Shown: positions 265-61,263, counted from the stretch's first letter. The stretch is DNA of 64,000 bases from Dysidea avara (GCF_963678975.1 NC_089281.1:27857151-27921150); one strand, 5' to 3'. The notes: generated by a model from the sequence alone, not told the origin. A program made the numbers and translations.

Positions 265-3200
265 CTGTGTATATATACACCATAATGGTGAGCGTTAACT
301 GGAGTTACGCATGTACCTTAAATGACGAGTTTTTCCTGCATGCCAAATTGATAATGAATAAAATCCTAGTCTCTTCTCTTCAGCTTTTGAGGGGTCTCTT
401 ACTATGAAACAACCATCCTGATGAGAAATACATGTAAATGATTGGAAAAACGTACGCATGTGTGTGTGTGTGTGTGTGCATGCGCAGGTACGTGTCTGTC
501 TGCCCATATGCTTATTGCTTACAGTAGCTTCTTTATCAAGAGCTGCTTCTGTTGCTCTTCGATCAATTTCTCCACGATACCATGGAAACTGTTCCAATGG
601 GTTACTTGGTTTTGCCTGGGTCTGTGGTGGTGGTGCTGGCTGCTGTGAACAAAAAATAAAGCTAAAACTCAAATCCACAATTACTAACTAACACTTTTCT
701 CACCTTAGGTGCATTAAAGTTACTAAGTAGCTTATTACTATTAGGAGCATAAGTATTGCGTCTACCACCGGGACTATCCTATGATGTAATTAACAATTAT
801 ATAATGTATAATTGATAGTGTACTACAATACTCACCACTTTTGGTTCGGGTGCTGGCATTTTGGTTCCTTTTGATGGCCTAGGAGGGAGGTCTGGTTCTG
901 ACGGCTACAGCAACAAATAATTACTAGTATTTACCTCCTGAATTCTCAAATATATGACAATTCTAGTGATGCACAATACACTGTACCTGTATCTCAACAG
1001 TTGAGTGGTTGCGACAGTGTACATGTAATAGTTATACCATGGCCGTGAGGGATTTAGCTGATACATACACCCAAAGCAGGAGGGCTGCAGGCCCAAGGCT
1101 AAGGATGTATGTATCAACAAAATCTGACACAGTCATGTATAAATGATACACACACGCACGTACGCATGCACGCACGCACACACACACACACCTCAAATCA
1201 AAGGAAAGCCAGTGCATATATATATCACATATCGCACTGACTCAAAATGTTAACAAGATATACGCACTGCTACCAGTGCGTATATCTCGTTAACTTGAGA
1301 CATTGCACACCTAATAGGAATGCACACTATATCCAGAAATCATCAGATTTCTTTGATGTTATACTGTTATCCTCTTCACTTATATAGGGAATCAAGCAAG
1401 CTGTGATTGTGAGACTTAATTTTAATACATCAACAGTAGTTTGTTTTTTTTACTTTTTGTAAATGTAGCAATTAAAGTAGCATAATCTCTTAAAATTAAT
1501 AAAATCAAACTACTGTTTGATGTATTAAAATTGAATCCCACAATCACAGTTTCTTTGGAAAAATTCAATCCCACAATCACAGCTTACTTGGTTCCCTATA
1601 TAATAGAAGGGTATAGCAACTAAAGATTTTGCCAATTAGGTGAGTCTACATACTACATATTAGTTATTCCACGGGCACTCGTGCTTTGCCTGTATATACA
1701 CATTCGGGCCTGTGGCCCTCGTGCTTGTGCATACATATCAGGCAAAGCACTCATGCTCGTGGTATAACTATTACTTATAGAACTTTGTGTGGGCGAGATC
1801 AAAGGAAAAGGTGTACTTTAAATTTCATAAAGTACACTCTCAGCCGGCCAACAGTGCTTCATGACCACAAAGAGTGCTTTATTGAACGAATAAAGCACTC
1901 ATTGTGGGCAATAAAGCACAGTTGCCCACGTGCTTTAGTGTAGGTTAATAGCCTGTGGGGCTTGCACCAGTACGACTAATCACCCACGCCGGTAAAGGCT
2001 GATAGCCTCGCCGCGCTGAGTGATCAATCACCCCAGTCAATATGAGTTTTACCACTGGATTACTTTTATAGACATACCTAAATGCTTCGATGATGGGTGG
2101 GAGAAGGTAACGTTGCTGTTACGTTTGTTAGTGTAAATGGACAAGTCCTGGAGATAAAAAATTATTTCACTGTGACTCACAATAGAATCGATTGTGGGTT
2201 GCGAGCAAAACCTGCCAAAATACGCGATGAACGTCTACTATGCCAAACTATGGTGAAATATGTGTGAGTTACTTTGTTAAACTAGTTCGTGTACGTTCAG
2301 GCTGCTAATAGTTCGTGCAACGCGTGTTAATTACGAGTCCTAGTGTATGGTGAAGCTACACAACTAGAAAGTTCCATAAATCATTTAAAGCATAGCCTTG
2401 CTCGTGCTATATGAAAAATAAAGTACTCGGCATTTGGCATCGATGCTAATAAAGCACTCGGCTTCGCCTCGTACTTTATTAGCATCTCGGCCGCGCACCT
2501 CGTACTTTAATTTTCATATAGCACTCGCGGCTATGCTTTAACATATACATATCCCTCTAGGCACACTCACCTGATAGGTGAAAGAACTACAGAGCATTCA
2601 CCCAGTTCCTTTTATACATCAGTATCTAATGATCGATAGTGGTTTTAATTTAAACACAGGTTAAACAGGGTTAACTAATAGGTTGAGGTCTACACATTGT
2701 TGGAATACTCTGTCCCAAGGATATCTTAGCAGGGGCAACAATGCAATGTCAATTAAGCATACTGGTCTGTCAACAAAGAGACAGCTTGTCAACAAAAACA
2801 CATTCTAGTACACATTCCAAGGCTGGCCTATAAATATCACAGAGCAAAAACAGCCAGCACAGTCTTTGTGAGCTGAGCAGCAAGCTTGCAGCAGAATTTA
2901 CTTCTTTACTAACTTCTGAGTATAGTAAGTGTCAAACTAGATCGACCAAGTTTTACTTGCATCTGAGAATGGCCAGCGATGAATATACCTGGCCAGGAGT
3001 ACAGAGTGTAGAAAGGCTAATGTTAAGCATGGGCAGCCATGGACGGGTGGTCATGGCCAGTGTCCAGTGGTAGCAGGCAGACTGCTGTTATACAATCAGG
3101 TGTGACCATAGACGGGTGGTCTTCACAGTCGGTTGCCCGAACCAGGTCTTGTTATACACTTTGTGTAGTGCACAGCTAGCTGCCGGGTGGTACTTAAAAG

Positions 3201-6200: not shown

Positions 6201-9200
6201 TATGAAGTACACCTTAGCTATGTTTGGGACCTACTTGACATGGTCACTATAATGAGGTGGTCTTATTAATGAGGTCATGAAGGACACCTTAGCTATGTTT
6301 GGGACCTACTTGACATGGTCACTATAATGAGGTGGTCTTATTAATGAGGTCATGAAGTACACCTTAGCTATGTTTGGGACCTACTTGACATGGTCACTAT
6401 AATGAGGTGGTCTTATTAATGAGGTCATGAAGTACACCTTAGCTATGTTTGGGACCTACTTAACATGGTCACTATAATGAGGTGATCTTATTAATGGGGA
6501 AACCGTTAAATGAGCCTTCAATGTATAAACTACATTTGCTTACACGTCGAATTTCTCGTGGTGGCAATGATGGAGAACCCTGATGGACTTGTGGGCTGGG
6601 TGCAGCAGGAAACTAGCGATGATGTGACACATGGCAAAGACAACGAAAGAAAAATTATCATACTTTGCCAGGTATTTGTGGAGGTGGATCATAATTCTCT
6701 TCACTAAAGTCCTGAAAGAAATAAAATGACAAAATATACACACACACATGCACACACCTCTTGGTCATTGTTATTATGCATCATGGGTGGCTCATATGTA
6801 TCTTCCTCTATCTGGAGACAGTGATATATAATAACTCACATGTACAACAGCCAACCAAAGCAACACAACCACAGCCCCACCCTTTAGCTCACCAATTGCT
6901 GATGAATATCAGGTGGATCATAATTATCCTCCTGTAGAGACAAGCACAACATTACCAGTTAAGTAATGTTGTCAGGAGCCCATATCCACCTCAGGACATG
7001 TACATATACACTTATAAACACTTATATGCAGGGTCTTCCTTACAGAGCAGCAGGGTGATAAAGCAAAACTTTACCAAGTCTAAAATGGTTGTTGGTTCTG
7101 CCATATGGCAGTCAGTTTAAAGAGGGTGGCCACTAAGTGAAGTTTCACTGTACTAATCAAATCATATACACGGTATATCTTGCGTATGCAAAATACATAA
7201 CACAACAGAGTTGTCACTTACATCAATCGGTACACTTGAAACTGGTGGAGGCATTGGAGGACGCTTGCCAATTGAGGGAGAAACAGCTGGCTGTTTGGCA
7301 CCAAATCGGGATGGCTTAGTGTTACGGTCGGGCAATCGAGGAGCAGAACTATCATCCATCCGTGGCGGTGGCAGCTCATGGCGGCTAGGCAAGGCAGGTG
7401 CATTGTTTACTTTAACTTGTGGCTTGGGACTATGCGGTAAAGTCTTTGCTTTGTAATCAACAGGTGGCTTGCTCAAAGCTGGGTTACCACCCTGCTTCCT
7501 ATCAAAACTACCACCCCACCTAGGTGACTTTGGTGGCTCTTCCTCAGTGCTACTAGCAGAAAACATTTTCATACGATCTTTAATACTCGTTCCACCAGTT
7601 TCTGGTTGATCTGATGCTTCCACAGGTGGCAGGGGTGGCGGCTTAAAACCTTTCTTGTCTATTTTCTGTTGCTTTTCCTCCTCTTTAGCTCTTAACTGGC
7701 GTAATTCAGGAGAGATATCTCCTTCGCCAGATTTAGATGTCTTGCGTTGCCTTGCCCTTTCATACCGGTCCCTCAAATGAGAAGGAATGTGGTCCAACTT
7801 TACTTCTTCTTCATAGTCTGCTGGCTGTTGTGTGCCTTTGACTGGAGCTAGGTTCCGCGGTGGAAGCTGCGGGCTTACATTGTCACTCTTTGTGAAGGCA
7901 GGCTTAACCGGTAGCTTGGGACTGGCAGGTCGCTTCACTGGTTGCTCAGGTACTGCAATAGTAGAAGGTGAATCAAACTTTTTGCCAAAGTTTCCAGAAA
8001 CAGTTTTGTTGTTTGATGAAGGAAGATTGGAGTTTATGTCATGTTTAGGAGCTGCTGTATTGTTTTCAAACATTTTTCGTTGTTCAAAAACCTTCGATGA
8101 TGGTTTGGTGGCAGAAATGTTTCTGCTTTGAGATGTGGGGAGAGCATGTGTATCAGTTTTGATAGGAGCCCTCATCATTGGAGCCTTGGATATAGGCTGC
8201 CGGAAAATAAACACCATTACACATATACAAGGGCAATTTAATTAACAAAAACACACCTAAACACACCACACTAAGCTACTACATGCACACAAACCACCAT
8301 GGTTAACATTCTTCATTTACCCAGAAAAAAGGTAGCCATAGTAAGTCTGGTAACCCTTACTTGTGCGGTTGTCGGCATTGTATCCTTCACTTCAGGAGGA
8401 GGTGGTTGATAAGCTGGAGCGTGCCCTTGAGCCTCTGTGAGATGAACATTAAAAACTATCATTTACAAAACTAATATTGAACAAGCAAGTAAACCAGCTA
8501 AGCCACTCAAGTTTGTATCATGAACCATGCAATTATGTGTTTTATGGTAATCGACTCACCTTCTGGCGGCACATCGTATATGTCATCCTTACAATAGACC
8601 ATGCAATTACAACAGTATGATAACAAATAATGAACTCACCTCTGTGAGTGTTATGGTGGGGGTAAAAGTGGACACATGGGCAATGATAGACATATAAAGG
8701 ATGTTGGGTTAGTAAGGGACACAATCTCTTACCGTTTCCGCCATAATCTTCTTCTTGGGGAGGATAAGAGTATTGAAATTCAGGGGGAACGTCATATACA
8801 TCTCCTTCATCATCATCATCGTATTCGTCCTAACAACAAGTGTGTTAATTGTAATATTAAACACACATACATATACACACACAGAGCAAAGCCTTCAGCT
8901 GCCGTGCTAGCACGGTCACGCCTACCCAGTGAACCAGCACTGGGGCACCTGTGTGCTACTCAGGTGCTAGGAGTCAGCGCAGGCAAATCCTCCTTGGGCA
9001 GGACTAGTAACCTGCAGGAGGCCCACAGGTGAAGGTGTGGCCCACCTGGACCTTCACCTGCCGTGTGAGACATGGACAGTTGATATTTGCTTTCCCAGTT
9101 AATACCAGGTATCCATTGATGTTACAGCTGGGTGGACTGCTTTCCCAGTTGACGCCAGGCAACCAGGTCCCCATTTAAACAGCTGGGTAGACTGGAACAA

Positions 9201-15357: not shown

Positions 15358-16643
15358 TAGATGACAAAGTATACCATTCCTGCTTCCCATCTTATAAATG
15401 TATAACTATACCCCACTATATTTGCATGCGGCCAATCCATTATAAGATTAGCAGCTCAGTAGCTTTTTAAGCCCCACTATTAAGTTGGCAATAATCATAA
15501 TAAACTGTTTAAAGCATGGTCAAGCTTGTAACTTCATCTTTTAGGTGGCAGGAATAACACAGATGTCAATCCAAGTTCACATGTAAGTTGACACCCTTAT
15601 TAGATCAGAATCTATACAATATGCAAGAAAGACTTGAAAATGATGGAAGAATATAGAATAGTAGTGCTACAGATGTAGCTAAGTGGTGGACAGGAAATTG
15701 GAGTGGCCTAGCTATTATACTAGCCAAAATACTACAGCTGCCTTTTCTGCCATGCATGAGTGTTCCAGAGTGGATTGCCCCTTTTTTATGTTGTGGAACT
15801 AAACTTGTTTGTACCCTCTCCTTGCCAACTCCCAGATTGGACAACATCCCATATTAACTATTGAAAGCCATATAATTACTCAAGTTTGTGTGAACTCCAC
15901 CATGCAGCTATACCTTTTAGTTTGTAGCTGTCTCCTACATACAGTCACTTATATATAAAAATTATAGCTATACTACTCCAGCATGCATGGAGTGATAGGT
16001 TAGCTACCATGCATTTAGAGTTGTAGTGTTTCAATCTAATCAAAATACACACATACATATATAGGTAGTCATCTTCATGCTCAGAAAACTGGCTGCATCA
16101 TGCATGATGTCAGGTGCGGTACACTTAGACTATAACTATGTTGCTATCTTTCATGAGGAAGTGAATGGTAGTATCCACTCTACGATATCACTGCAACAAT
16201 CAGTGGTTACGTGACCAGACAAATATTCTCTTCATCTATACCTAACTGGGTAAGAGACTACAGTCAGTCATGAGTGAACCTGCATCTGACCTGTACCACC
16301 TACACATATGCCGTGCCGTATATTACTAGAGTGGGTGTTTGCTATAGCCAAGCCAAAATTGGAGTCAGACTTAGATAACTAAAATTTAATGTCATTGATA
16401 GTCTAGTGGTCTCGGCAGAATGGGTATGCTAAATGGGGTGCATGGTTTCTAATAGCTCTATCAACCCTGTATGCATAATTAATCTTATAAATATTGTCGG
16501 GGGACAAACTTAGCCAACAAAAATTTACAAGTCCTATATGATTCAGCATGACTGCTCTGTTAGAGTAGTTAATTCCCTCGGACATATTTAGGGGATTTAC
16601 CTCAGCATAGATATAATAAGTATATGACCTCGGGTGCCGGGGA

Positions 16644-18680
16644 ATGGCACTACGTGGGTATTTACTGACAACCGTTGTTACTGGATCATTGGCTGTGTTA
16701 GCCAGTTACTATTTTAATCGCACACCAGAAATACGACAAAATCGTTTCAACTCTGCTTTTGTACCAGCGCAAAGTCAGGCAAGATGGTACGTTGATGGAC
16801 AGGACTACATGTCAGCTGTGGCGGACGCCATTGAGGCAGCTTCAGATGAAATCTTTATCACAGACTGGCAGATGAACCCACACATATTTATGAAGAGACC
16901 AGATACAGGAGTTGATAGTTTGTATTGGCGTCTAGACAAGATGTTACTGAGGAAAGCCTCGAGGAAAGCTGATCAAGGCGGTGTTAAAATCTACATACTA
17001 TTGTATTGGGAGTCAAAGGTACTTGCTGGCATGGATCATGGAAGTGATTTTGTTCAAGTTGTTTTAAAGCATGATAACATCAGTGTGCTTGTCCATCCAG
17101 ATCTAAATACAGCAATCCATCATGGTTTTGAAGGTACTGGTTGGTGGAGTCATCACGAGAAGGTTGTTGTAGTTGATCGTAAAATTGCTTTCGTTGGTGG
17201 AATTGACCTTTGCTTTGGTCGTTGGGATACGCACAGTCATGAACTAGTCGATGATTATCCTGTCCATCCATGTGTTGCTGGAAACAACAATGATTGTGAT
17301 CGATCTGAAGGAAAGGATTTGAAATACTCTCGTTGGATAGGTAAAGACTATGGAAATACCTTTTATGGAGGAGTTAGGACTCAATTAGATCAGTCAATGG
17401 TTGATTATATAGACAGGAGTGAAATTCCTCGAATGCCATGGCATGATGTAGGGTGCTCATTTACTGGTCCACCGGTCCAAGATGTCAGTAAGCATTTTAT
17501 CCAGAGGTACAACAGTCACTCTGCACAGCCCTGGTGGAAGATTTGGGGTGATGAGCCGTTGTACCTTGAAGACAAGGAATATTCTGCAACTCCAGATTCC
17601 ATTGGTTATGACGTTCAGGTTCAAGTACTCCGATCAGTAGACCAGTGGTCAACTGAAGAAGACCACGAAGCTTCTATATACAATGCTTACCTTCATGTCA
17701 TTAATGAATCCAAGCATTTCATCTATATAGAAAATCAATTTTTTATTTCATCACAAAAAGGAGTTTTCTTAAAGGTTAAAAACCAGATATTGTCTGCTAT
17801 AGCTGATAGGATTATTCGTGCATACAAAGATGATGAAGATTTTCATGTTATAGTTGTCATGCCACTAAAACCTGAGTTTCCTGGGGAATGGGAGGCAGAA
17901 AGTGGAAAGGACTTGAGATCAGTTAGCTACTGGAATTATTTATCAATTTACAGTGGAGAAGATTCTCTATACAAGAGACTAGAAAATGGAAAGATTCCTC
18001 AAGACATCATACCTCAGTACTTCAATGTGTATGGACTACGTACCCATTGTACTCTCAATAATAATCTTGTGACAGAAATTATTTATGTTCACAGCAAGAT
18101 GATGGTTGTGGACGATAGGGTGGCTATAATTGGTTCAGCTAACATCAATGATCGTAGCATGCTAGGCTACAGGGATTCAGAAGTAGCAGTGATAATCGAA
18201 GATAGAGAGATGGTTGATGGCAAGATGAATGGCCAACACTTTGAAGTAGGGAAATTCTCCCATAGCCTGCGATGTCATCTAATGAGGGAACATCTTGGTT
18301 TAATGGATGATGAGGAATATGTAACTTCTGACATGAAAGTGGATGATCCTTTAGCTGCTACCAACTTTCTCTTGAAGGTAGCCCAAAGAAACAGTGCCAT
18401 TTATGACCGGGTGTTTGGAGGTAGGATCACTCCCAGTGATCATGTGTGGAATTTAGAAGATCTCACAGAACGATCTGCAATTCCTGGTCTTGTTAACATT
18501 GATTTAAATGAAGCTAAGAAAGAACTCGATAATGTTCAGGGCAGTATTGTCAGTTATCCAGTATTGTTCTTAAAAGACATACTCAAGCCATCCTATTTAG
18601 ATGTGTTAGGTGTGTATGTGGATACTCGTGGCCGTTCAAAAACACTGAATTTTGATGAGCCTGGGACTGTGTTTGTTTAG
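16644..18680 (+). CDS. Phospholipase D with PLD1/2-type catalytic core and two HKD motifs; 678 aa, intronless, N-terminal transmembrane helix, no PX/PH domains
   Basis: ATG at 16644, stop at 18678-18680. HKD1 is WSHHEKVVVVDRKIAFVGGIDLCFGRWDT. HKD2 is IYVHSKMMVVDDRVAIIGSANINDRSMLGYRDSEVAV. The segment FITDWQMNPHIFMKRP...RLDKMLLRKA matches the PLD1/2 core. N-terminal MALRGYLLTTVVTGSLAVLASYYF is hydrophobic. A TATA-like tataataagtatat lies ~30 bp upstream and aataaa ~150 bp downstream. Confidence 0.85.
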   Translation: MALRGYLLTTVVTGSLAVLASYYFNRTPEIRQNRFNSAFVPAQSQARWYVDGQDYMSAVADAIEAASDEIFITDWQMNPHIFMKRPDTGVDSLYWRLDKMLLRKASRKADQGGVKIYILLYWESKVLAGMDHGSDFVQVVLKHDNISVLVHPDLNTAIHHGFEGTGWWSHHEKVVVVDRKIAFVGGIDLCFGRWDTHSHELVDDYPVHPCVAGNNNDCDRSEGKDLKYSRWIGKDYGNTFYGGVRTQLDQSMVDYIDRSEIPRMPWHDVGCSFTGPPVQDVSKHFIQRYNSHSAQPWWKIWGDEPLYLEDKEYSATPDSIGYDVQVQVLRSVDQWSTEEDHEASIYNAYLHVINESKHFIYIENQFFISSQKGVFLKVKNQILSAIADRIIRAYKDDEDFHVIVVMPLKPEFPGEWEAESGKDLRSVSYWNYLSIYSGEDSLYKRLENGKIPQDIIPQYFNVYGLRTHCTLNNNLVTEIIYVHSKMMVVDDRVAIIGSANINDRSMLGYRDSEVAVIIEDREMVDGKMNGQHFEVGKFSHSLRCHLMREHLGLMDDEEYVTSDMKVDDPLAATNFLLKVAQRNSAIYDRVFGGRITPSDHVWNLEDLTERSAIPGLVNIDLNEAKKELDNVQGSIVSYPVLFLKDILKPSYLDVLGVYVDTRGRSKTLNFDEPGTVFV

Positions 18681-19112
18681 TAATGGCTGTAGCAAGTATG
18701 ATGCATTACAATTTATAATCTTGTGAATTTTATGAAGTCGTGTAGTTAAGTAGTTTTTTAGGCTTTTGGCATTTCTTTTTCTACCCCACCATCCTTGTAA
18801 TTTCTGCATGTGCATCCATATTGTGTATAAATAAACCTAAGGCAGCATGTGAGCAGTTGCAATGGTCACACTGCTAGTCATACATTTCAACAAATTTTAG
18901 TAATCAACTGTTCTATTAGAGTAGATGATATCACTTTTTTGTATATAGGCATTCTGATATCTTAAAGATTTTTAGAACAAAGCCACTTCTTTGGGTAAAA
19001 TTTTGGCTATAAGGCCTAATTACACACCGTATTAATTTCTCATCTAGCAATGCAAGCAGGTGGATGTTTAATATTATAGTTCACAAGTCATGATGCAACT
19101 TTTAGTCTGTTA

Positions 19113-19660: not shown

Positions 19661-20701
19661 TCAAGCGATCGCTATTGCCTTCTCTATCCATTGAGCACAC
19701 TCAGCAAATTTACTGCCAGAGACAGACCTCTCCTGGAAGAATTTCATCAGACTTTTGTATCTAGCCAGAAATTTGAACTGAATGGCAAATTGTAGTTTTC
19801 TGAGACACACAGGACACAGGAAGGAAAATGCCCGGTCACCCTCTTCAGCATTATTACTGCCGTTCATTAGACATGAGAAGTAGACACAATGCTGTAGTCC
19901 AAACATGTGTCCAATCTCATGAGTTAAAACTTTAATAGCTCTCCACTGTAATAACTGGTATTCGTCTGGTGTTAACTCATGTAAAGTGCTAACTTCAATA
20001 CTTTTAGCACCATTGAAGAAGTTTGGGTGATGTCTTGCAAAGCTGAACACTCCAATCCTATCCTGCAACATTGCCCTACCAAATACGAAGTTCCAACTTT
20101 CCTTTGGGTATAGATCAACCATCGTGACTCCCAAGACGCAGTAGGCATCTTCTGGAATCATGTTTTTCATAAAAGTAAATATCCCAGGAACGTGGAGTTG
20201 TGGACGTTTGACACCTTCACTGACTGTGTGGTTTCTAGTGCTACACTTCAACTTTGCCAAGGGGACTTCTGTCAGTAATTTGACATTCATGCTAGCAAAA
20301 AATAATTTTGTATAAACCTCCAAGTCACTGAGAAACGTCATTCCTGAACAGCCCCCGTCTTTTGGTTTAGCGGTAGCTGAATGGCTTCCTTGGCTTAAAA
20401 ACTCCCCCAGGGGAAGAATGTATATTGTGTTTCTTGTGCTAGTGACATCGTTCCTGCTCAGTTTTGTCTGCCATGTTAAGAACGGTTCCGGTGGAGTTGG
20501 GTGGTTTCTCAGCCAGTCGTCAGGACCTGGCTTACCAAGGTGAGGAAATAACACGTGTGTACCGTCAGTACACTTCTTCAAGTATTCGTTAAACCGCTTG
20601 AACTTCTTTTCTAGCGCGAAATCCAAGTGCAACGCGTCCGCTATCTCTCTCACATCTGGCGAGCCGGAGGCATCTGGTGTGATAAATTCCTTTGTGGCCA
20701 T
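19661..20701 (-). CDS. Archaemetzincin-like zinc metalloprotease (AMZ family), 346 aa, intronless
   Basis: ATG at 20701 (minus), stop at 19661. Zinc-binding HEIGHMFGLQHC followed by FSCLMNGSN and CPVCLRKLQ, the metzincin HExxHxxGxxH plus Cys-rich signature typical of archaemetzincins. Confidence 0.8.
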   Translation of the reverse strand: MATKEFITPDASGSPDVREIADALHLDFALEKKFKRFNEYLKKCTDGTHVLFPHLGKPGPDDWLRNHPTPPEPFLTWQTKLSRNDVTSTRNTIYILPLGEFLSQGSHSATAKPKDGGCSGMTFLSDLEVYTKLFFASMNVKLLTEVPLAKLKCSTRNHTVSEGVKRPQLHVPGIFTFMKNMIPEDAYCVLGVTMVDLYPKESWNFVFGRAMLQDRIGVFSFARHHPNFFNGAKSIEVSTLHELTPDEYQLLQWRAIKVLTHEIGHMFGLQHCVYFSCLMNGSNNAEEGDRAFSFLCPVCLRKLQFAIQFKFLARYKSLMKFFQERSVSGSKFAECAQWIEKAIAIA

Positions 20702-21159
20702 CTCGTGCGCGCCCTTATTTTCGAATTTGGCGGACGGCGCTGGTCTTACATGTCATCATGTCACATGATGGCATTACATAAAGGTGTTTTCCATCCACGA
20801 TGGTTTTTTCTTTACAACCTCATTGCATTCAAAAATATGCTGAGTGTCGGACCACACTTGACATTGGTTTTACTCATTGGTACAACTTAAACAAACAAAT
20901 AGTTTATCCATATAGCTATGTAAAAGGATTTTAGATACAGAGCTATTCAGCTAGTTTTATACGTTGTATACTGTGCATGGGCTGCAGAGTCTTACAGTGA
21001 GGTGTTGTAGTTAATGTTTGCATTTAATAAAGCTTCTGCAGGAATGGACAAGCTTTCAGCTGCAGTTACAAGTTTATTCTATACAGCTCAACCGAATCGT
21101 TTTGAGTCCTTTGCACTAGTTTATGACAGGCAAAATGGTATGTTGATGGGCAAGACTAC

Positions 21160-23052
21160 ATGTCAGCTGTAGCAGATGCTATTGAAGCAGCTTCAGATGA
21201 AATCTTCATCACAGACTGGCAGATGAACCCACACATATTTATGAAGAGAGAAGATATGGAAGTTGATAGATTGTACTGGCGCCTGGACAAGATGTTATTG
21301 AGGAAGGCTGATCAAGGTGTTAAGGTCTACATGTTGCTGTACTGGGAGTCAAAAGAGGTAGCTGGCATGGATCTCGGAAGTGATTTTGTACTGGCTACCT
21401 TGAAGCATAAAAACATTGAGATACATCGTCATCCAGACTTCACTTTACCTCATCGCTTGAGCCATCATGAGAAGGTTGTTGTAGTTGATTGCAGTATTGC
21501 CTTTGTTGCTGGAATTGACCTTTGTTTTGGTCGCTGGGATACACACAACCATGAACTGGTAGATAATTACCCTGCTCACCCCTGTTTTGAAAGAGAGAAT
21601 GAGTCAAAACTGTATAGCATAGTTAGTTTTTCCAAACGCCTGTGGGATTCAATGTGGCCTGACACAAGCGCCAGATACTCTCATTGGATAGGTAAAGACT
21701 ATGGTAACACCTTCCATAGTGGAGTTAGAACTCAGCTAGATCATCCAATGGAAGATTATATAGATAGAAATAATATTCCTCGAATGCCATGGCATGATGT
21801 AGGATGCTCGATAACTGGCTCACCAGTGCAAGATGTGAGTAAGCATTTCATCCAGAGGTACAGTATTCATCAGATTGACAAGCCCCTGCCAAATTTCGTT
21901 GGTGAAAGAAAATGGTCAAGTAGATTGTGGCATATGGTGAAAAATATCCGTCCTGTTGCCAGTCACTCTATTCCAGATCCAAGTAGTGGTAATGTCAGTA
22001 TTCAAATTCTTCAATCAGTAGATAGTTATTCAAATAATTCAGCAGACAAGAAGCGCAAGACTTCTGTACACAATGCTTACCTTAACCTGATCAAAAATTC
22101 CAAACATTTTGTATACATAGAAAATCAATTTTTTGTGTCTGGTCAAGATGGAATAGTGAAAAATAAGATTATGCCTGCTTTGGCAGATAGGATTATCCTT
22201 GCCCACGCAAATAAAGAAGACTTTCATGTTGTCATTGTCATACCTTTAAAGCCAGAATTTGCAGGAGAATGGGAGGCAGAAAGTGGGAGGGATTTAAGAA
22301 CTATAAGTTATTGGAACAATGCAACAATCAAGGAAGGGAAAAGCTCCTTGTACAGGAGGCTGGAAAAGGCTGGAATCTCTAAAAATGCAATACCTAAATA
22401 TTTCAAAGTGTATGGACTACGTACCCATGGCACTCTTAACAATAATCTGGTGACAGAAATTATTTATGTTCACACCAAAATGATGGTCATGGATGATCAG
22501 GTGGCTATAATTGGTTCAGCCAACATTAATGATCGTAGCATGCGTGGAAAGAGGGACTCAGAGGTAGCAGTGATGTTTGAAGATGCAGAGATGATTGACG
22601 GCAAGATGAATGGCCGACACTTTGAAGTAGGAAAATTTTCCCATAGCCTGCGATGTCATCTAATGAGGGAACATCTTGGTTTATTGGACAAAAAGAAATA
22701 TGAGGCTTCAGATATAAAAGTGGAAGATCCATTAGACACTACATTCCGTGATTTGATCTCTGTAGCAGCTGAGAATAATGGTGTCATTTATGAGACTGTA
22801 TTTGGTGGTAAAGTAACTCCTACCAATCACGTGTGGAATTTTAAAGATCTGAAAAACTATCAATCAAAGCATGGCCTTGCTAAATGTGACCCAGAAAGTG
22901 CTAAGAAAGAGTTGGATGCACTTCAAGGCAGCCTTGTCACTTATCCAGTACTGTTCTTAAAAGATGTCCTTGAGCCATCAGCCCTGGACAACTTAAGTGT
23001 TTATTCAGAGATTTTTTGCACTATATCACTTCATGATTTTTTTTGCTGTTAA
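21160..23052 (+). CDS. Phospholipase D paralog (two HKD motifs), 630-aa ORF from the first in-frame ATG; N-terminal TM region lost
   Basis: HKD1 is SHHEKVVVVDCSIAFVAGIDLCFGRWDT and HKD2 is YVHTKMMVMDDQVAIIGSANINDRSM. Nucleotide homology to PLD copy 1 continues upstream to a homologous ATG at ~21044, but with a ~44-bp deletion of the TM segment, a frameshift and an in-frame TGA at 21124. Either the real CDS starts at 21160 (soluble isoform) or an upstream exon splices into the ttatgacag acceptor at 21129. Confidence 0.7.
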   Translation: MSAVADAIEAASDEIFITDWQMNPHIFMKREDMEVDRLYWRLDKMLLRKADQGVKVYMLLYWESKEVAGMDLGSDFVLATLKHKNIEIHRHPDFTLPHRLSHHEKVVVVDCSIAFVAGIDLCFGRWDTHNHELVDNYPAHPCFERENESKLYSIVSFSKRLWDSMWPDTSARYSHWIGKDYGNTFHSGVRTQLDHPMEDYIDRNNIPRMPWHDVGCSITGSPVQDVSKHFIQRYSIHQIDKPLPNFVGERKWSSRLWHMVKNIRPVASHSIPDPSSGNVSIQILQSVDSYSNNSADKKRKTSVHNAYLNLIKNSKHFVYIENQFFVSGQDGIVKNKIMPALADRIILAHANKEDFHVVIVIPLKPEFAGEWEAESGRDLRTISYWNNATIKEGKSSLYRRLEKAGISKNAIPKYFKVYGLRTHGTLNNNLVTEIIYVHTKMMVMDDQVAIIGSANINDRSMRGKRDSEVAVMFEDAEMIDGKMNGRHFEVGKFSHSLRCHLMREHLGLLDKKKYEASDIKVEDPLDTTFRDLISVAAENNGVIYETVFGGKVTPTNHVWNFKDLKNYQSKHGLAKCDPESAKKELDALQGSLVTYPVLFLKDVLEPSALDNLSVYSEIFCTISLHDFFCC

Positions 23053-25159: not shown

Positions 25160-25860
25160 TTTTGTACTTGTATACATTTCATCTGTATAGAAATCAGCTT
25201 TTTATTAAGGTCTATAGAAGGTGTAAAATAAGATTATACCTGCCTTGGCTGATAGAATCATTCATCCATATAAGGGAAATTTTTCATATTGTAGTTGTTA
25301 TACCATTTAAAGCCTGCAGAATGGGAAGACAGTATGTGGAACAATTTCACAACTGATTAGTGGAGGAAGCAATTCCTTTACAGTAGATTAGCAAAATTAA
25401 TATGCCGAAGTTCCTAAAAATATTATACCTAGCCGTACATGCAGTCTATATACACATGACTGACACTCTTAATCAATTGGTAACAGAAATCACTTACGTA
25501 CATTCACAGAAAGATGATGGTTGTGGACAAATTGAGTTTAGCTATACTTGAATTACATCATGTATAGCATGCTAAGTTTCAGGGACTCAGAGATAGTAGT
25601 GACGTTTGAAGACACAGAGATGATTGATGGCAAGATGGATGGCCAACACTTCCAGGTATCTAATGAGAGAACATCTAAGTATAGCTATAGCTAATTTGCT
25701 GAGGAATTTCAAAAATGCTATCAGTCATGCAAAGTGTGAGCTTGCTATACGTGACCCAGACAAAGCTAAGAAAGAGTTGGAGTGCAGCCTTGTTAGTTAT
25801 CCAGCAATATGTTCTCAGGTTGAAAGATCGATGCTCTCCAGCCATCAGCAATAGACATTT
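25160..25860 (+). pseudogene. Decayed phospholipase D pseudogene (third PLD copy; C-terminal half, multiple frameshifts/stops)
   Basis: Recognisable remnants: KIRLYLPWLIESFIHIREIFHIVVVIPFK (~ KIMPALADRIILAHANKEDFHVVIVIPLK). nt 25470-25530 reads NQLVTEITYVHSQKDDGCGQ (~ [19 protein letters not shown]). 25600-25860 reads MIDGKMDGQHFQ...LMREHL...AKCELAIRDPDKAKKELECSLVSYPA (~ PLD2 MIDGKMNGRHFEV...AKCDPESAKKELDALQGSLVTYPV). Confidence 0.6.
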
Positions 25861-26690: not shown

Positions 26691-27881
26691 ATGTTCAAAG
26701 AAGGTTTGCTTTTGCCATCTCTGGTTTTACTGGCTACCACTGTACCTAATATATAGACATGCAGGTAAGTGTATTTACATACACACAGTGACCTGTACTT
26801 TATAAGCTTTATACTACTCACTTTCTATACATATGTATAAGCATTATGAGTTTCTATTTATTCTTTTATTAATTAAGGCTTTGCTTTACAACACAGATGC
26901 TGGAGGTCTGTCGGTCCTATATACATTCCTTTATTTCCTTATATATATATATTGCATTTTATGTGCTCTTATTTAATCTTATATATAGCCTCTGGCTTAC
27001 TAGACAGACCACTGCATGTCTTTGTTATAACACCATGCAGGTAGCCTTTTGACAACTGTGCTGTTAATTTAATCAATTCCTCTTCTTTATACTTTTCCTA
27101 TTCACATGTATGTTTTACAGTGGCGCTTTATGCTTTCATCAAGTACATATTCATGATGTCTAGTTGTTTGAATGATGCAATGAAATGGCACCAACATGTC
27201 TAAGTGTGAGTGTGCATGCTTTGCTAAATGATATGTATAGGGAAAGCAAGTGGCCACACCTCTCAATAGTATATGGTAAATACAATAATAGCTTGTAGGG
27301 TTTTACCCAGTCCCAAGTCATCAGCTATGAGAATACAACCTTTGTGACAAACTTGCCAAACTTTATTTAGTATCACCAGCGTGCACAAAAGTATATGTAC
27401 TATATGTAATAATATTTGTACATGGTTATAATAGCTCAGCTTAGCATAAGTAAGCTACATATAGCGTACGTGTGAATGTGTGATATGAATGATTTTTCTT
27501 AATTTTCAGCCACTCAACTACCCTGATATTCCAGTGACATACAGGGTTATCATAAATGAAGCAGATCATCCTGATTGTCCTCTAGCAGGCAATACTTCCA
27601 GTCCAGGTGAAATAAATCTTGCAGTACCTCATGGAGTTACTGGTATTCAACTAATGGAAGCTGCAGTGGCTGTAGATAAGAAGTTTCATTTTACAGCATC
27701 CTTTGACTATGCAGAGTTTGGGTATCATATTGACTCAATCAATGGCATTCTGGAGGATGCAACCTGTTACTGGGGACTGTATTATCAATCTTACAATGCT
27801 ACCCCAGTTTACAGCAGTGTTACAATCAGTTCCTTTTATCCCAGCTTTAAGGCAATAGTCACTTGGATCTACGGAAAGTAG
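26691..27881 (+). CDS. TCbeta-like secreted protein gene 1 (possibly defective): exon 1 26691..26764, exon 2 27510..27881
   Basis: Exon 2 (acceptor aattttcag) encodes PLNYPDIPVTYRVIINEADHPDCPLAGNTSSPGEINLAVPHGVTGIQLMEAAVAVDKKFHFTASFDYAEFGYHIDSINGILEDATCYWGLYYQSYNATPVYSSVTISSFYPSFKAIVTWIYGK*. The candidate signal-peptide exon MFKEGLLLPSLVLLATTVP..(donor gtaagt) is 74 nt, so it is out of phase and carries an in-frame stop relative to its paralogs. Confidence 0.55.
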
Positions 27882-29989: not shown

Positions 29990-31010
29990 ATGGTAGTTTT
30001 GCTTTTGCCAATTCTGACTATCCTGGCTGCCACTATACCTTGTATAGATATGCAGGTAAGTGTAGTTGCAGTGATCTATGCTTGTGATGTGCAAATACCA
30101 AATTTTATACATTTATACCAGGCTTGCAGCACCCTATAGTTTGGCTGTTATATACATTTTTGAATTCAGTTATTGTATTTAGTGTGTAACTCTTTATACT
30201 TTTCTGGCAGTTTTATAAGCTTCTACATGATGGCTTTGTGTCAGCATATGTTTAATTTGTACACACAAATGGTAAAAGTTGTGTATATGATGCATCAACA
30301 CCTAGCAATAAGAAGCTGGCTTATAGGTTGATTATTGTATGTTACTGTTGAGCTGACATGCAAAGCTTCTCACTGTGTTCTCAGAAAACATGTTTATACA
30401 ATCTTTAACATTGCCGGAACCTGTTTCATGCTTATATTTCAGTAGATTTTTCTAACAACAAAGGAACATAATCCAAGAAAGTTTCAGACTTATAGCTGTA
30501 TGTCACAAATCAGAACTTATAGCATAAATTATATGCATTCTTTCACAAACATGTCCATAAACATGTCCATACTTCCAGTCACATTATGATGTACACCATA
30601 CATACAGGCTAATGTTGTGTACTTTTCTTAATTTTCAGACTCTCAACTACCCCAATATCCCAGTGACATACAGGGTGATTATAAATGAAACAGACCGTCC
30701 TGACTGTCCTCTGGCTGGTGATACTCCCAGTCCAGGTGAAATAAGTCTTGAAGTACCACAAGGAACTACTGGTATACAACTGATGGAAGCTGCTGTGGCA
30801 GTAGATAAAAATTTTCGTTTCACTGCATCTTTCAATAGTGCAGAATTCGGCTATTTTATTGAATCAATCAGTGGTGTTGTAGGGGATGCAACTTGTTACT
30901 GGACTTTATCTTACCAGCCTTACATGGCCTCCACAGTTGTAAGCAGTGTTGGAATCAGTTACTACTACCCCAGCTACAAGGCAATAGTCCAATGGGTGTA
31001 TGGAAAGTAG
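29990..31010 (+). CDS. TCbeta-like secreted protein gene 2: exon 1 29990..30055 (MVVLLLPILTILAATIPCIDMQ), exon 2 30639..31010
   Basis: Exon 1 is 66 nt, phase 0, donor gtaagt. Acceptor attttcag. Exon 2 encodes TLNYPNIPVTYRVIINETDRPDCPLAGDTPSPGEISLEVPQGTTGIQLMEAAVAVDKNFRFTASFNSAEFGYFIESISGVVGDATCYWTLSYQPYMASTVVSSVGISYYYPSYKAIVQWVYGK*. Confidence 0.8.
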
Positions 31011-33449: not shown

Positions 33450-34027
33450 ATGGCAAAACAATTGTTGATCCTGCTATTTCTGGTGATGATCATGACAATG
33501 AAAAGAACTAGTAGTATGGTAAGAATGCATAAGCCATAAATCTCTATACTAGGTATATAATGTAGTTAGTTCTCTTGGTTCTACTGTAGCAGTTCATTGT
33601 GACATGAATAATGATTTATTATCTTTAGGAGCTAAACTACCCTGATATCCCAGTCACGTACAAGGTGATTATCAATGAAAGAGACCGTGCCAACTGCCCT
33701 CTAGCAGGAAACACAACCAGTCCAGGAAAATTACGTTTAGTAATACCCCAAGGAACTAGTGGTATTGAGCTTATGGAGGCTGCTGTGGCTCAGAACAAGG
33801 ACTTTCGGTTTACTGTATCTTTCAACAATGCAGGACTGGGCTATTCGGTCCAGTCTATCAATGGTGTTACAAGAGATCTTGACAACTCCTGCTTCTGGAC
33901 ACTGTCTTTCAAGCCATACTTGGCTACCAAGCTGAAGAGCAGTCCAGTTGGAATCAGCAGCTACTATCCCAGCTTTAAAGCAGTAGTCCAGTGGGAGTAC
34001 CGCCGATTCCAACATGACGATAAATAA
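33450..34027 (+). CDS. TCbeta-like secreted protein gene 3: exon 1 33450..33518 (MAKQLLILLFLVMIMTMKRTSSM), exon 2 33629..34027
   Basis: Donor gtaaga, acceptor atctttag. Exon 2 encodes ELNYPDIPVTYKVIINERDRANCPLAGNTTSPGKLRLVIPQGTSGIELMEAAVAQNKDFRFTVSFNNAGLGYSVQSINGVTRDLDNSCFWTLSFKPYLATKLKSSPVGISSYYPSFKAVVQWEYRRFQHDDK*. Confidence 0.8.
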
Positions 34028-35160: not shown

Positions 35161-35867
35161 ATGCAGCAAATATTAAATGTGGCCATTTTGATTCTGTTAA
35201 TGATATGTGAGAAAATTTATTGTCAGAACACAGTGAGTTATTGTTCAGTTGTAATCTACAACATACCATGCATGGCATATAGTTATTGTATGTATATAGG
35301 CATGTCACAGGAAGCTCAGAAAACTTCCTAAAAATACTTTGAGCTTTGTGATATTTCTTTTTTTTTGAAAATTATATTTGTGTTATGCCACATAAATATT
35401 CTGCTCTTTCCATGCTGCATGAAGTTCCAGTTTTGTACTATACACTAAATATATTTGGTAATTGTAATTTTATGCAGGCTCTCAACTACCCTGATATCCC
35501 AGTGACATACAGAGTTCTTTACAATGAAACAGATCGCACCAATTGTCCATTAATGGGAGACACTTCCAGTCCAGGGGAAGTACGCCTTGTGGTACCACAA
35601 GGGATTAATGGAATAAAATTAATGGAAGCTGCTGTGGCCAAGAGTACCAATTTTCGATTCACAGCTTCTTTCAGTCGGGCTGGTCTGGGATACCTCATCA
35701 CATCAATCAATGGTACAGCATCAGATGTTGCCAATTCTTGCTTCTGGATACCTTCCTTTAAGCCTTATCTGGCTAAAGAGCTTATCGTCAGTCCAGTTGG
35801 CATCAGCAGTTATTATCCAAGCTTTAATGCTGTACTGGAATGGGAGTATCGACAGTTTGATCACTAA
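35161..35867 (+). CDS. TCbeta-like secreted protein gene 4: exon 1 35161..35232 (MQQILNVAILILLMICEKIYCQNT), exon 2 35478..35867
   Basis: Donor gtgagt, acceptor tatgcag. Exon 2 encodes ALNYPDIPVTYRVLYNETDRTNCPLMGDTSSPGEVRLVVPQGINGIKLMEAAVAKSTNFRFTASFSRAGLGYLITSINGTASDVANSCFWIPSFKPYLAKELIVSPVGISSYYPSFNAVLEWEYRQFDH*. Confidence 0.8.
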
Positions 35868-45115: not shown

Positions 45116-45502
45116 TCACTCAAGTTGTCGGTATTCCCACTGGACAACAGATTTATAACTGGGGTAGTAGCTGCTGATTCCAACTGGACTGCTGATGAGT
45201 TCCGTGGCAAGGTATGGCTGAAAAGACAGTGTCCAGTAACAAGAATTTTCAGCATCTCCTGGAACACCATTTATTGACTCAATGAAGTATCCTAGTCCTG
45301 CATCATTGAAGGAAACAGTAAACTTGTAGTTGCTACAACTGGCCACAGCAGCCTCCATTAGTTGAATACCATTGATCCCTTGAGGTACTACCAGATGGAC
45401 TTCCCCTGGGCTGGTAGCATTCTCTGCTAGAGGGCAATCAGGACGATCCACTTCATTTATGATAACCCTGTATGTCACTGGTATATTGGGGTAGTTTAGA
45501 GG
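45116..45502 (-). CDS. TCbeta-like secreted protein gene 6, exon 2 (domain exon); proximal exon 1 not found
   Basis: Acceptor ttttctag on the minus strand, exon starts at 45502. Encodes PLNYPNIPVTYRVIINEVDRPDCPLAENATSPGEVHLVVPQGINGIQLMEAAVASCSNYKFTVSFNDAGLGYFIESINGVPGDAENSCYWTLSFQPYLATELISSPVGISSYYPSYKSVVQWEYRQLE*. The C-terminus is shortened by an indel relative to gene 7. Confidence 0.7.
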   Translation of the reverse strand, partial: PLNYPNIPVTYRVIINEVDRPDCPLAENATSPGEVHLVVPQGINGIQLMEAAVASCSNYKFTVSFNDAGLGYFIESINGVPGDAENSCYWTLSFQPYLATELISSPVGISSYYPSYKSVVQWEYRQLE

Positions 45503-59280: not shown

Positions 59281-59466
59281 TGCTATGTATGTATGTATGT
59301 ATGTATGTATGTATGTATGTATGTATGTATGTATGTATGTATGTATGTATGTATGTATGTATGTATGTATGTATGTATGTATGTATGTATGTATGTATGT
59401 ATGTATGTATGTATGTATGTATGTATGTATGTATGTATCATGTATGTATGTATGTATGTATGTATG

Positions 59467-59498
<32 letters not shown>

Positions 59499-59650: not shown

Positions 59651-59652
<2 letters not shown>

Positions 59653-59879: not shown

Positions 59880-60340
59880 AACAAATAGCTGATGACTACA
59901 ACGCAAATAAAGAAGACTTTCATGTTGCCATTGTTATACCTTTAAAGTTGTAGGAGAATGGAAGGCAGAAAGTGGGAGGGATATAAGAATCAAGGAAAAA
60001 CTTCTTGTACAGGAGCCGGGTTGGAGAAAGCTGGAATCCCTACAAATGCAATAACAAAGTATTTCAAATTGTATGGACTACGTACCCATGGCACCCTTAA
60101 TAATAACCTGGTGACAGAAATTATTTATGTTCACAGCAAAATGGTGGTAGTGGATGATTGTATGCATGGGTAGCCATATATTGGTCTGTCATCTAATGAG
60201 GTTTTTTGGTTTATTGGACAAATAAAAGGCTTCAGATATAAAGGTGGAAGATCTGTTAGACACTATACATTCCATGATTTGATCTCTGTAGCAACTGACA
60301 ATAACGGCATCATTTATGACACTGTATTGGTTGTAAAGTA
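59880..60340 (+). pseudogene. Decayed phospholipase D pseudogene fragment (fourth PLD copy; HKD2 region)
   Basis: Reads [25 protein letters not shown]...[50 protein letters not shown]. Then RCHLM..FGLLDK..ASDIKVEDLLDTIHSMI*SL*QLTITASFMTLYWL with frameshifts and deletions relative to PLD2 22200-22820. Confidence 0.6.
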
Positions 60341-60596
60341 ACTCCTACCATGCAGTCATATGTGAAATTTTTAAGCTAGTGGAAGCTATATAGTACATGT
60401 GCAATTACATCTTAAGCACAATAGACTATATGGGTGATGTAAAAATGGAAAGAGCAAAATAGGAAGACTGAGCTAAGCTCAACAAGAAGGAGTAATAGTT
60501 ATATTTCAGGGTAAAACCACTGCTATAAAATTGAAATACTCTAATAGAATAGTCAACTATACTCTAATAAACACTGTGTAAACGCCTTTCGTTTTT

Positions 60597-61242: not shown

Positions 61243-61263
61243 GTATAGCTATATGGTGTAGCT

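Follow-up and report, generated by a model that had tools for sequence, protein, structure and literature searches.

Phospholipases D (PLDs) of the PLD1/PLD2 type are the textbook signal-regulated lipid enzymes, the activity of which is thought to depend on targeting by PX and PH domains and on phosphatidylinositol 4,5-bisphosphate (PI(4,5)P2); the canonical enzymes are recruited and switched on via these two domains together with an internal polybasic PI(4,5)P2 motif. Their chemistry proceeds through a covalent phosphatidyl-histidine intermediate and yields phosphatidic acid or transphosphatidylation products. The gene described here, PLD-A, is located on the plus strand of a 64,000-nucleotide stretch of chromosomal DNA from the demosponge Dysidea avara (GCF_963678975.1, NC_089281.1:27857151-27921150; this whole stretch is referred to as the window, and positions are counted from its first letter). 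It encodes what is, by sequence and predicted fold, a PLD1/2-type catalytic core lacking both the PX and the PH domain, with a degenerate polybasic motif and with a predicted hydrophobic helix at its start. On balance, PLD-A is probably a functional single-exon enzyme of an old intronless family, permanently tethered to the membrane, independent of PI(4,5)P2 and acting on a glycerophospholipid substrate, a reading that is held here with moderate confidence.

Among the other HKD proteins that are held at membranes, PLD3, PLD4 and PLD5 are type II membrane proteins with a poxvirus K4-like catalytic domain, regarded as 5'-3' exonucleases, with PLD3 and PLD4 being luminal glycoproteins, and PLD6 (MitoPLD, Zucchini) is a small, dimerising, single-HKD relative of bacterial Nuc which is placed by an N-terminal anchor on the cytosolic face of the mitochondrial outer membrane. 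In PLD2 and Spo14, the polybasic-aromatic motif (PLD2 residues 554-575, net charge +6, with R554, R558 and R563 being important) mediates PI(4,5)P2 activation as well as a general anchoring to acidic membranes, selective targeting being supplied by the PH domain (PMC2173982). Two kinds of PLD from Phytophthora, an oomycete, have also been described. PXTM-PLD, of 1807 amino acids, keeps the PX domain, the PI(4,5)P2 motif and a core of the canonical type, IYIENQFF and IGSANIN-like motifs included, and TM-PLD has a multi-pass, DUF803-type membrane domain, a second HKD motif degenerated to HKN and neither IYIENQFF nor IGSANIN, with no homology outside Phytophthora found by its authors (PMC3056787).

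PLD-A is an uninterrupted open reading frame (ORF) of 678 amino acids running from ATG to TAG, as had been claimed in the original prediction, which was made from the bare sequence. Its coding sequence (CDS) is identical to that of the RefSeq model XP_065921050.1 of Dysidea avara, labelled "phospholipase D2-like", which was produced by the NCBI eukaryotic pipeline and likewise has no introns in the CDS. The length of the ORF in DNA of ~40% GC, together with the E-values given below, is far beyond chance. The features of the gene are the following:

16610..16625, plus strand: TATA-like element GATATAATAAGTATAT, 19-34 nt 5' of the PLD-A ATG and holding the in-frame stop TAA at 16617; read from the sequence, putative promoter element
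16644..18680, plus strand: single-exon CDS of PLD-A (evidence: ORF, Pfam, PDB phmmer, RefSeq identity, AlphaFold model, Foldseek, substitution ratios)
16647..16718, plus strand: N-terminal hydrophobic helix, residues 2-25, ALRGYLLTTVVTGSLAVLASYYFN, candidate signal-anchor (AlphaFold model, Kyte-Doolittle score)
17154..17177, plus strand: first HKD motif (HKD1), H171-x-K173-xxxx-D178 (HHEKVVVVD), within Pfam PLDc and invariant in 57 of 57 aligned family members
17469..17579, plus strand: equivalent of the PLD2(554-575) polybasic PI(4,5)P2 motif, degenerate and Trp-rich, PVQDVSKHFIQRYNSHSAQPWWKIWGDEP (net-charge comparison)
18090..18113, plus strand: second HKD motif (HKD2), H483-x-K485-xxxx-D490 (VHSKMMVVDD), followed by IGSANINDRS (family alignment)
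18830..18835, plus strand: AATAAA, the sole canonical polyadenylation hexamer within 720 nt of the PLD-A stop

No genomic poly-A tract follows the hexamer at 18830. The ratio of nonsynonymous to synonymous substitution rates (dN/dS) of PLD-A is 0.127 when it is compared with its copy on the sister contig L001, which indicates strong constraint, and 0.235 when it is compared with PLD-B, the paralog that lies downstream in the window. PLD-A is a real gene that is maintained by selection.

The translation of PLD-A contains EIFITDW, RLDKMLLRKA..GVKIYILLY, HHEKVVVVD, YVHSKMMVVDD, GSANINDRSM and FIYIENQFF, among which are both of the HKD motifs and all of the inter-motif regions quoted in the original prediction. 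The presence of two HxK(x)4D motifs in a single chain places it in the HKD phospholipase D superfamily, and the conserved regions I-IV, with IYIENQFF and IGSANIN, are those of the PLD1/2/Spo14 core. Pfam reports two PLDc domains (E 1.6e-18) and PLDc_2. In a phmmer search of the PDB sequences, the best matches are human PLD1 (E 5e-130, residues 29-649) and PLD2 (2e-122), with Pseudomonas PldA (1e-50) and plant PLD-alpha (3e-26) being more distant, and with no PLD3/4 chain at E 1e-3 or better. The AlphaFold (AF2) model, which was built on an alignment of 57 family sequences, has a mean predicted local distance difference test score (pLDDT) of 84.6 and a predicted template modelling score of 0.87. 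Foldseek aligns this model with the crystal structures of the human PLD1 and PLD2 catalytic domains (6OHM, 6OHR and 6U8Z) with target-normalised template modelling scores of 0.90-0.93, a root-mean-square deviation of 2.3-3.4 Å and 38-39% identity; PLD2 itself is found at E 8.5e-64, with a score of 0.91 and 39% identity, mouse PLD3 at E 4.7e-14, with a score of 0.59 and 12% identity, and bacterial, plant and Streptomyces PLDs at scores of ~0.5. The predicted assignment to the PLD1/2 type is borne out in this way, with PLD3/4 and bacterial enzymes being far behind. A PLD3/4-type enzyme is excluded by the Foldseek result and by the PDB sequence search, and a bacterial-type PLD by the phmmer and Foldseek distances.

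The residues of the active site have been preserved throughout the family. H171, K173 and D178 of HKD1, H483 and D490 of HKD2, and G497, S498, N500, N502, D503, R504 and S505 downstream of it are invariant in the 57 aligned members, and K485 of HKD2 is present in at least 90% of them. Judged from this conservation and from the modelled fold, PLD-A would be a catalytically competent HKD phospholipase D, and its chemistry is presumably the same as that of PLD1 and PLD2.

The elements by which the canonical enzymes read phosphoinositides are missing. Pfam detects neither PX nor PH in the PLD-A protein, which also has no PLD1-type loop insertion, and a tblastn search of the 64-kb window with the PX-PH N-termini of 14 canonical metazoan PLDs revealed no PX or PH coding sequence; the best match (E 0.014, at 53130-53249, far downstream of PLD-A) was treated as noise, as was the best match (E 1.9) of a profile hidden Markov model of the same 14 N-termini to all of the six-frame ORF pieces of the window. 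The catalytic domain, used as a positive control in the tblastn search, was matched strongly. The original prediction of an enzyme free of PX, PH and loop region is in agreement with these results. Across the region aligned with the polybasic motif, canonical PLDs of metazoans carry a net charge of +4.6 and those of fungi one of +5.9, whereas the short family has +0.2. The motif's initial Arg and its K-x-x-K-x-K run have been lost in the family, and many members contain a WW.(K).W insert; PLD-A has Q279, K283 and R288 at the equivalent positions, followed by NSHSAQPWWKIWGDEP, and its insert at the position of the motif is SAQPWWKIWGDEP. With PX and PH absent and the polybasic motif lost, all three of the phosphoinositide-reading elements of PLD1/2 are missing from PLD-A.

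In the AF2 model of PLD-A, 41 residues precede the first β-strand of the core, of which residues 2-25 form a helix (24 residues, pLDDT ~72-86) that is followed by a linker of ~15 residues. The segment, in which Thr, Ser and Gly abound, contains 21 consecutive uncharged residues. Its best Kyte-Doolittle score over 19 residues (KD19, with a classical transmembrane cut-off of 1.6) is 1.45, which is about equal to that of a buried β-strand at residue 174, and orthologs that are 78-96% identical to PLD-A exceed the cut-off. Among 121 relatives, KD19 is at least 1.6 in 65, the N-terminus is short and hydrophilic in 37 (e.g., MATKGSTAKHRF), and the rest are intermediate. Since a hydrophobic segment recurs in most of the subclades despite little sequence conservation, selection appears to act on its hydrophobicity. 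The transmembrane helix that had been predicted at the N-terminus is thus upheld in part, by the modelled helix and by the scores of the close orthologs, and is left in doubt by the score of PLD-A itself.

A large protein search with PLD-A returned 4599 relatives, and the best 120 of them are almost all 615-740 amino acids long with PLDc domains only. The family comprises ~125 clusters at 90% identity, and its named members come from the demosponges Dysidea and Amphimedon and the octocorals Xenia and Paramuricea only; a second homolog search, seeded from the deep branch P0131, led back to nearly the same ~125 clusters and added no named taxon. In an exhaustive search of 1.84 billion representatives, the family amounts to ~5 clusters at 50% identity with scores of 721-520 bits, after which there is a gap, followed by proteins of 900-1900 amino acids at 462 bits or less. 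Those sampled from the latter group are canonical PX(-PH) animal PLDs, including one of the sponge Oscarella, and Spo14-type fungal PLDs, and all of the canonical relatives score for PX. The identity of PLD-A to canonical PLDs is ~44-48% over matched stretches. In a neighbour-joining tree (588 trimmed columns, 100 bootstraps) that included PLD1/2 and protist PLDs, as had been proposed as a check, the short family is monophyletic with 100% bootstrap support and stands outside the canonical metazoan clade (74% support), and it attaches at 59%, at a node that is unreliable, to a protist group containing an amoebozoan. Members were recognized as proteins of 615-740 amino acids within this clade, with the start motif (R/N)RF.SFAP in the first ~45 residues and with an intronless CDS, and PLD-A has all of these features; the family C-terminus ends in ...NFDEPGTVFV.

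The absence of introns extends to the family members from other genomes. The gene span equals the CDS length in Xenia (1986 = 661x3+3, within a three-gene tandem array), in Amphimedon (2127 = 708x3+3) and in the assemblies GCA_012263305 (2208) and GCA_949826985 (2016), and the remaining members have mostly been called as single ORFs on metagenome-type contigs. The canonical PX-PH PLD gene of Oscarella, on the other hand, occupies 5512 bp for 951 amino acids, with at least 14 exon blocks. The equality of gene span and CDS in four other genomes, set against this multi-exon gene, makes the intronless state an old property of the family. The family would accordingly be an old paralog group, separate from the canonical PX-PH PLDs and intronless wherever it was checked. 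The literature library that was searched yielded no account of a short PLD1/2-like family from sponges or cnidarians, which is absence of evidence within that library, and the family appears to be known so far solely as automated "PLD1/2-like" annotation. Judged by its sequences, it would represent an uncharacterised branch of PLD1/2-type enzymes, intronless, anchor-bearing and devoid of the PI(4,5)P2 motif, the named members of which are all from demosponges and octocorals. The notion of a distinct, minimal, membrane-anchored class holds as far as monophyly, the ~125 clusters and the hydrophobic start of most members are concerned, and does not hold for the anchor as a universal feature, given the 37 hydrophilic N-termini among 121.

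Several further observations were made on these relatives. The Amphimedon family gene (L004 10001-12127, plus strand) is nested in an intron of an annotated gene on the opposite strand (L004 6786-14522, minus strand). Among the members P0034, P0037, P0040, P0043-P0057 and P0048, P0082, a subfamily has no hydrophobic leader and starts with MATKGSTAKHRF; two clusters start with MGASGST..., which fits the N-myristoylation consensus MGxxxS/T, and these starts, if real, would mean that a lipid anchor replaces the helix. Two protist proteins, P0198 and P0275, from a clade related to Luapelamoeba, have PLD1/2-type cores fused to a protein kinase and SH2 or to RasGEF, cNMP-binding and GRAM domains, which, in amoebozoan-type sequences like these, are unusual architectures for a PLD.

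In the model proposed here for PLD-A, the single N-terminal hydrophobic helix and the ~15-residue linker would hold the catalytic domain permanently at the membrane, and the neutral, often Trp-rich loop that takes the place of the polybasic motif would act as an interfacial wedge, docking the face of the active site on the bilayer. The substrate, a bulk glycerophospholipid (phosphatidylcholine, for instance), would be hydrolysed or transphosphatidylated in cis, with phosphatidic acid as the product of hydrolysis and with no requirement for PI(4,5)P2. Control would thereby be exerted through gene expression, copy number and localisation in place of recruitment and activation. Membrane insertion, topology, substrate, independence of PI(4,5)P2 and organelle are thus what we infer for PLD-A.

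An annotation artefact, in which PX and PH would be encoded by upstream exons and the ATG at 16644 would lie inside the gene, was weighed solely because canonical relatives always carry N-terminal modules, and no support for it was found. An in-frame TAA (16617) stands 9 codons 5' of the ATG, the TATA-like element lies at -19 to -34, nothing resembling PX or PH coding sequence is present within 64 kb, the RefSeq model has the identical 678 amino acids, and dozens of homologs share the start point with a hydrophobic leader. The artefact is effectively refuted by these findings, its likelihood being close to nil, and the upstream stop, the RefSeq model, the absence of PX/PH and the homologs with the same start together establish that PLD-A begins ~40 residues ahead of its catalytic core. 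It also has to be considered that this start might not enter the membrane at all, and that PLD-A is a soluble cytosolic protein, a bare catalytic core that binds membranes peripherally, with a helix that does not span them. The KD19 of 1.45, which an internal β-strand reaches as well, points in that direction, as do the third of the family without a hydrophobic N-terminus and the degenerate remnant of the segment in PLD-B (Kyte-Doolittle score 0.28 in the intact allele P0122); however, 21 charge-free residues with a predicted helical structure, orthologs at 78-96% identity that pass the transmembrane threshold and the recurrence of the feature across most subclades make a soluble enzyme quite improbable. 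If the N-terminal segment served instead as a type II signal-anchor or as a signal peptide that is cleaved off, the enzyme would work in the lumen of the secretory or endolysosomal system or in the extracellular space. The placement would then parallel that of PLD3/4 or of the secreted oomycete sPLD-likes, the loss of the PI(4,5)P2 motif would be expected outside the cytosol, and extracellular PLD activity is known in oomycetes (PMC3056787). The PLD-A segment could indeed be read as such a signal peptide, with a basic n-region (R4), a moderately hydrophobic, T/S/G-rich h-region of ~15 residues and a possible V-L-A|S site, and there is an N-R-T sequon at residues 25-27; the Amphimedon member begins with MKFIIISILLLLSSVPYPQA, which is signal-peptide-like, and the N-flank of Xenia P0075 is strongly basic (+3). 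The N25 sequon is, however, absent from the 78%-identical orthologs, no N-glycosylation sequon is conserved across 57 members (no position has one in more than 16 of the 57, and there are 2.3 sequons per protein), and conserved Cys are few in the family alignment. Among the 46 members whose N-flank is short, the median length of the uncharged core is 22 amino acids, which exceeds that of a typical signal-peptide h-region, the net charge of the N-flank is zero or negative in 27, and the mean flank charge is +1.59 on the C-terminal side against +0.33 on the N-terminal side (the C-flank being more positive in 27 members and the N-flank in 12). The 37 members without any signal or anchor must be cytosolic, and all characterised PLD1/2-type cores act, to our knowledge, on cytosolic leaflets. 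The charge bias, the lack of conserved sequons, the few Cys and the cytosolic anchor-less members favour a signal-anchor with the N-terminus out and the C-terminus cytosolic; by analogy with the anchor of microsomal P450 enzymes, the most likely topology would be one in which the catalytic domain is cytosolic, and a luminal or secreted PLD-A is rather unlikely.

The reading of PLD-A as an anchored, cytosol-facing enzyme of an old family has several points to contend with, among them the signal-peptide-like starts of PLD-A, which could lead to the lumen or the exterior, and of the Amphimedon member. The KD19 of PLD-A is marginal, being below the cut-off, and insertion of PLD-A itself is uncertain for that reason; the charge bias, at 27 versus 12, is modest, and part of it is produced by the conserved R-x-R-F motif of the catalytic domain; many of the family N-termini are prokaryote-style ORF calls, the start codons of which are possibly wrong; some dependence on acidic lipids may survive through the three basic residues that are kept (K283, R288 and K307); and the tree is a neighbour-joining tree on 588 columns with weak deep nodes (42-59%).

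The origin of the intronless gene has been considered separately. The original prediction had suggested a retroposed gene, and PLD-A could be a 5'-truncated, processed copy of the mRNA of an intron-rich PX-PH PLD that gained a new start and a hydrophobic leader, either recently or at the origin of the family. PLD-A is intronless against the at least 14 exon blocks of the canonical sponge PLD, and the beginning of the protein coincides exactly with that of the catalytic domain (the conserved RF.SFAP motif), which is what truncation of a cDNA at its 5' end would produce. A recent event of this kind should have left traces, for which the flanks of the gene had been proposed as a place to look, and neither a poly-A remnant nor a target-site duplication was found flanking PLD-A. 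The density of A downstream of the gene equals the background of the window, and the sole direct repeat that flanks it, of 22 bp at 16548 and 19160, belongs to a dispersed short repeat, ATGACTGCTYTRTTAGAGTAGT, with six plus-strand copies in the window (16548, 19160, 29183, 29203, 47018 and 47043; none expected by chance), two tandem pairs of which lie at 29.2 and 47.0 kb and one copy of which lies 96 nt 5' of the PLD-A ATG; in view of these six copies and of the tandem pairs, the repeat was rejected as a target-site duplication. The ~44-48% identity to any canonical PLD, the intronless orthologs and paralogs in other demosponges and in octocorals (Xenia, Amphimedon and the two further assemblies) and the position of the family, which is not nested in the canonical metazoan clade, also speak against it, and recent retroposition at the PLD-A locus is not supported. 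An ancient retroposition may have founded the family, which would be compatible with the preferred reading and would fit the exon contrast with Oscarella; taken as a whole, the retrogene explanation is unlikely. Horizontal transfer, either from a protist or microbe or between demosponges and octocorals, which are rich in holobiont partners, would account for named members that are restricted to these two groups despite heavily annotated hexacoral, hydrozoan and bilaterian proteomes, and every checked member is intronless and the family groups with a clade containing an amoebozoan. That grouping is nonetheless weak (59%, unreliable), taxon names cover only a minority of the family sequences, and the protist "sister" proteins have other architectures (PH; kinase and SH2; RasGEF, cNMP-binding and GRAM) and no anchor. 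Moreover, the genes are located on megabase-scale host scaffolds and in tandem arrays, no prokaryotic protein comes close, and the best non-family matches among the 1.84 billion representatives are all eukaryotic canonical PLDs, which renders a transfer very improbable. A bacterial or symbiont origin was rejected, since the representative search placed no prokaryotic protein anywhere near the family and Pseudomonas PldA is far more distant.

The surroundings of PLD-A contain a second long copy and two remnants of the family, which had gone unnoticed in the original prediction, and an unrelated gene between the two long copies:

19661..20701, minus strand: archaemetzincin-2-like (Peptidase_M54) gene, a single ORF of 346 amino acids identical to RefSeq XP_065882687.1, between the two PLD genes; context only
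21044..23052, plus strand: PLD-B (main ORF 21160..23052, 630 amino acids, identical to RefSeq XP_065882686.1), 60% identical to PLD-A
25175..25809, plus strand: decayed PLD remnant 1, matched by tblastn to PLD-A residues ~358-641 over three frames, with stops
59900..60371, plus strand: decayed PLD remnant 2, matched by tblastn to PLD-B residues ~349-561 at 74-88% in pieces, with HKD2 intact and then a deletion, frameshifts and stops

PLD-B is located 2.5 kb downstream of PLD-A, and its ORF begins at the equivalent of PLD-A residue 56, the RefSeq model starting at an internal Met. A 7-bp deletion (CCAATGT, between 21126 and 21127), as compared with an intact copy of 667 amino acids on L001, puts its first ~39 codons (from the ATG at 21044) out of frame, and its dN/dS of 0.445 suggests that PLD-B may be under relaxed constraint. 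Both remnants are nearer to PLD-A and PLD-B than to canonical PLDs. The possibility that the PLD-like match at 60 kb and the weak PX-region match at 53 kb form a canonical, intron-containing PLD was ruled out, as the 60-kb segment is nearer to PLD-A/B (74-88%) than to canonical enzymes (51-68%) and contains stops and frameshifts. The family thus evolves by tandem duplication and decay, the window holding two copies with long ORFs and two remnants, and PLD-A is the well-maintained copy within this locally duplicating and decaying gene family. Such birth-and-death dynamics might, as a matter of speculation, hint at an environment-facing role.

PLD-A, the M54 gene and PLD-B are three adjacent intronless genes in a genome the other genes of which have introns. 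The original prediction that every neighbouring gene of another family has introns fails at the immediate neighbour (19661..20701, minus strand), which is the single-ORF M54 gene. The order PLD-M54-PLD is also found on the related contig L001 (ena:ERZ25068803:ctg11850l), which is syntenic with the window and comes from the same ENA sample; the synonymous divergence (dS) between the two in PLD-A is 0.127, and the intergenic DNA barely aligns. This divergence is greater than would be expected of simple haplotypes, and L001 may represent a segmental duplicate, a haplotype that is very divergent, or another Dysidea lineage present in the sample.

Genes with several exons are found in other parts of the window, for example one on the minus strand with a proline-rich exon of 351 amino acids and no Pfam match (7162-8217, minus strand) and, ~6.5 kb downstream of this exon (298-687, minus strand), a partial, split SH2 domain (profile positions 19-54 of 77); the combination looks like an adaptor-type protein. 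Seven copies of an ORF unit of ~130 amino acids, with the consensus LNYPDIPVTYRVIINE.DR.DCPLA...GYFIESINGV...C.WTLSF...VVQWEYR and a weak similarity to DUF4430 (E 2e-4, just under the gathering score), form a tandem and inverted array of small genes or exons with a transcobalamin-like domain:

27489-27878, plus strand: ~130-amino-acid ORF unit
30561-31007, plus strand: ~130-amino-acid ORF unit
33629-34024, plus strand: ~130-amino-acid ORF unit
35352-35864, plus strand: ~130-amino-acid ORF unit
37396-37788, plus strand: ~130-amino-acid ORF unit
45119-45502, minus strand: ~130-amino-acid ORF unit
53534-53935, minus strand: ~130-amino-acid ORF unit

Directly 5' of PLD remnant 2, a long microsatellite at ~59160-59690 (ATGT/ACAT-type, read as CMYV or HTYI repeats) gives rise to spurious overlapping ORFs on both strands, and just 3' of the same remnant there is an ORF of 184 amino acids (60744-61346, plus strand; MADNPYFAAFEKYYEQLEKALP...) with no Pfam match.

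The family to which PLD-A belongs is a conserved, natural one under purifying selection, in which the whole core has been kept, the three phosphoinositide-reading elements have been dropped and a hydrophobic anchor is found in most members. If active, it would provide structure-function studies and engineering with a naturally occurring minimal PLD1/2 core, would make it possible to test directly whether PI(4,5)P2 activation is intrinsic to the fold, and would serve as a marker of the diversification of lipid signalling in early-branching animals. The label "phospholipase D2-like" is misleading in that it hides a different architecture as well as the status of the family as a paralog group of its own, which includes pseudogenes and tandem arrays. 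A broader proposition extends the account to the whole demosponge/octocoral PLD1/2-core family, which would be lineage-restricted and rapidly duplicating, free of any phosphoinositide control and constitutively inserted in the membrane, would face either the cytosol (P450-like) or, more radically, the lumen or exterior, and would use the Trp loop as an interfacial element, with its birth-and-death dynamics and patchy distribution reflecting a host-microbe or phagosomal role in these holobiont animals or an ancient transfer between them. No PLD1/2-type enzyme before it would have been shown to be independent of PI(4,5)P2 and integral to the membrane; this proposition is tentative and, as it stands, rather doubtful.

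Compared with the described systems, PLD-A is homologous to the core of PLD1, PLD2 and Spo14 from end to end, with both HKD motifs, IYIENQFF and IGSANINDRS. It differs from them in having no PX, PH or PLD1 loop, in the neutralised polybasic motif, which often contains a WW.W insert, in the N-terminal hydrophobic helix, in the intronless gene, in its separate clade and in the C-terminus, which is ...PLEVWT in the canonical enzymes and ...NFDEPGTVFV in the sponge family. The protist PLD1/2-type enzymes, including the amoebozoan one, similarly have the core joined to N-terminal modules other than PX/PH, and their variety implies that the PLD1/2 core tolerates exchange of its targeting domain; unlike PLD-A, they carry soluble signalling modules (PH alone; kinase and SH2; RasGEF, cNMP-binding and GRAM), lack a hydrophobic leader and form separate clades. 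In its layout, PLD-A, with a candidate N-terminal anchor ahead of an HKD enzyme, resembles PLD6/MitoPLD, but it has 678 amino acids, two HKD motifs and a core of the PLD1/2 type. The layout of PLD3, PLD4 and PLD5, with a short N-terminus, a single N-terminal membrane segment and a two-HKD domain, is similar to that predicted for PLD-A, whereas the catalytic subfamily is a different one according to Foldseek and the sponge family has no conserved sequons. As in the oomycete TM-PLD and PXTM-PLD, hydrophobic segments stand beside the HKD region, and both oomycete types are intronless; an assignment of PLD-A to the TM-PLD kind was rejected on the description of the latter, with its DUF803-type domain, its degenerate HKD2 and the absence of both motifs (PMC3056787). 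In contrast to these oomycete proteins, PLD-A combines one N-terminal helix with two intact HKD motifs, IYIENQFF and IGSANIN, and has neither a PX domain nor a PI(4,5)P2 motif.

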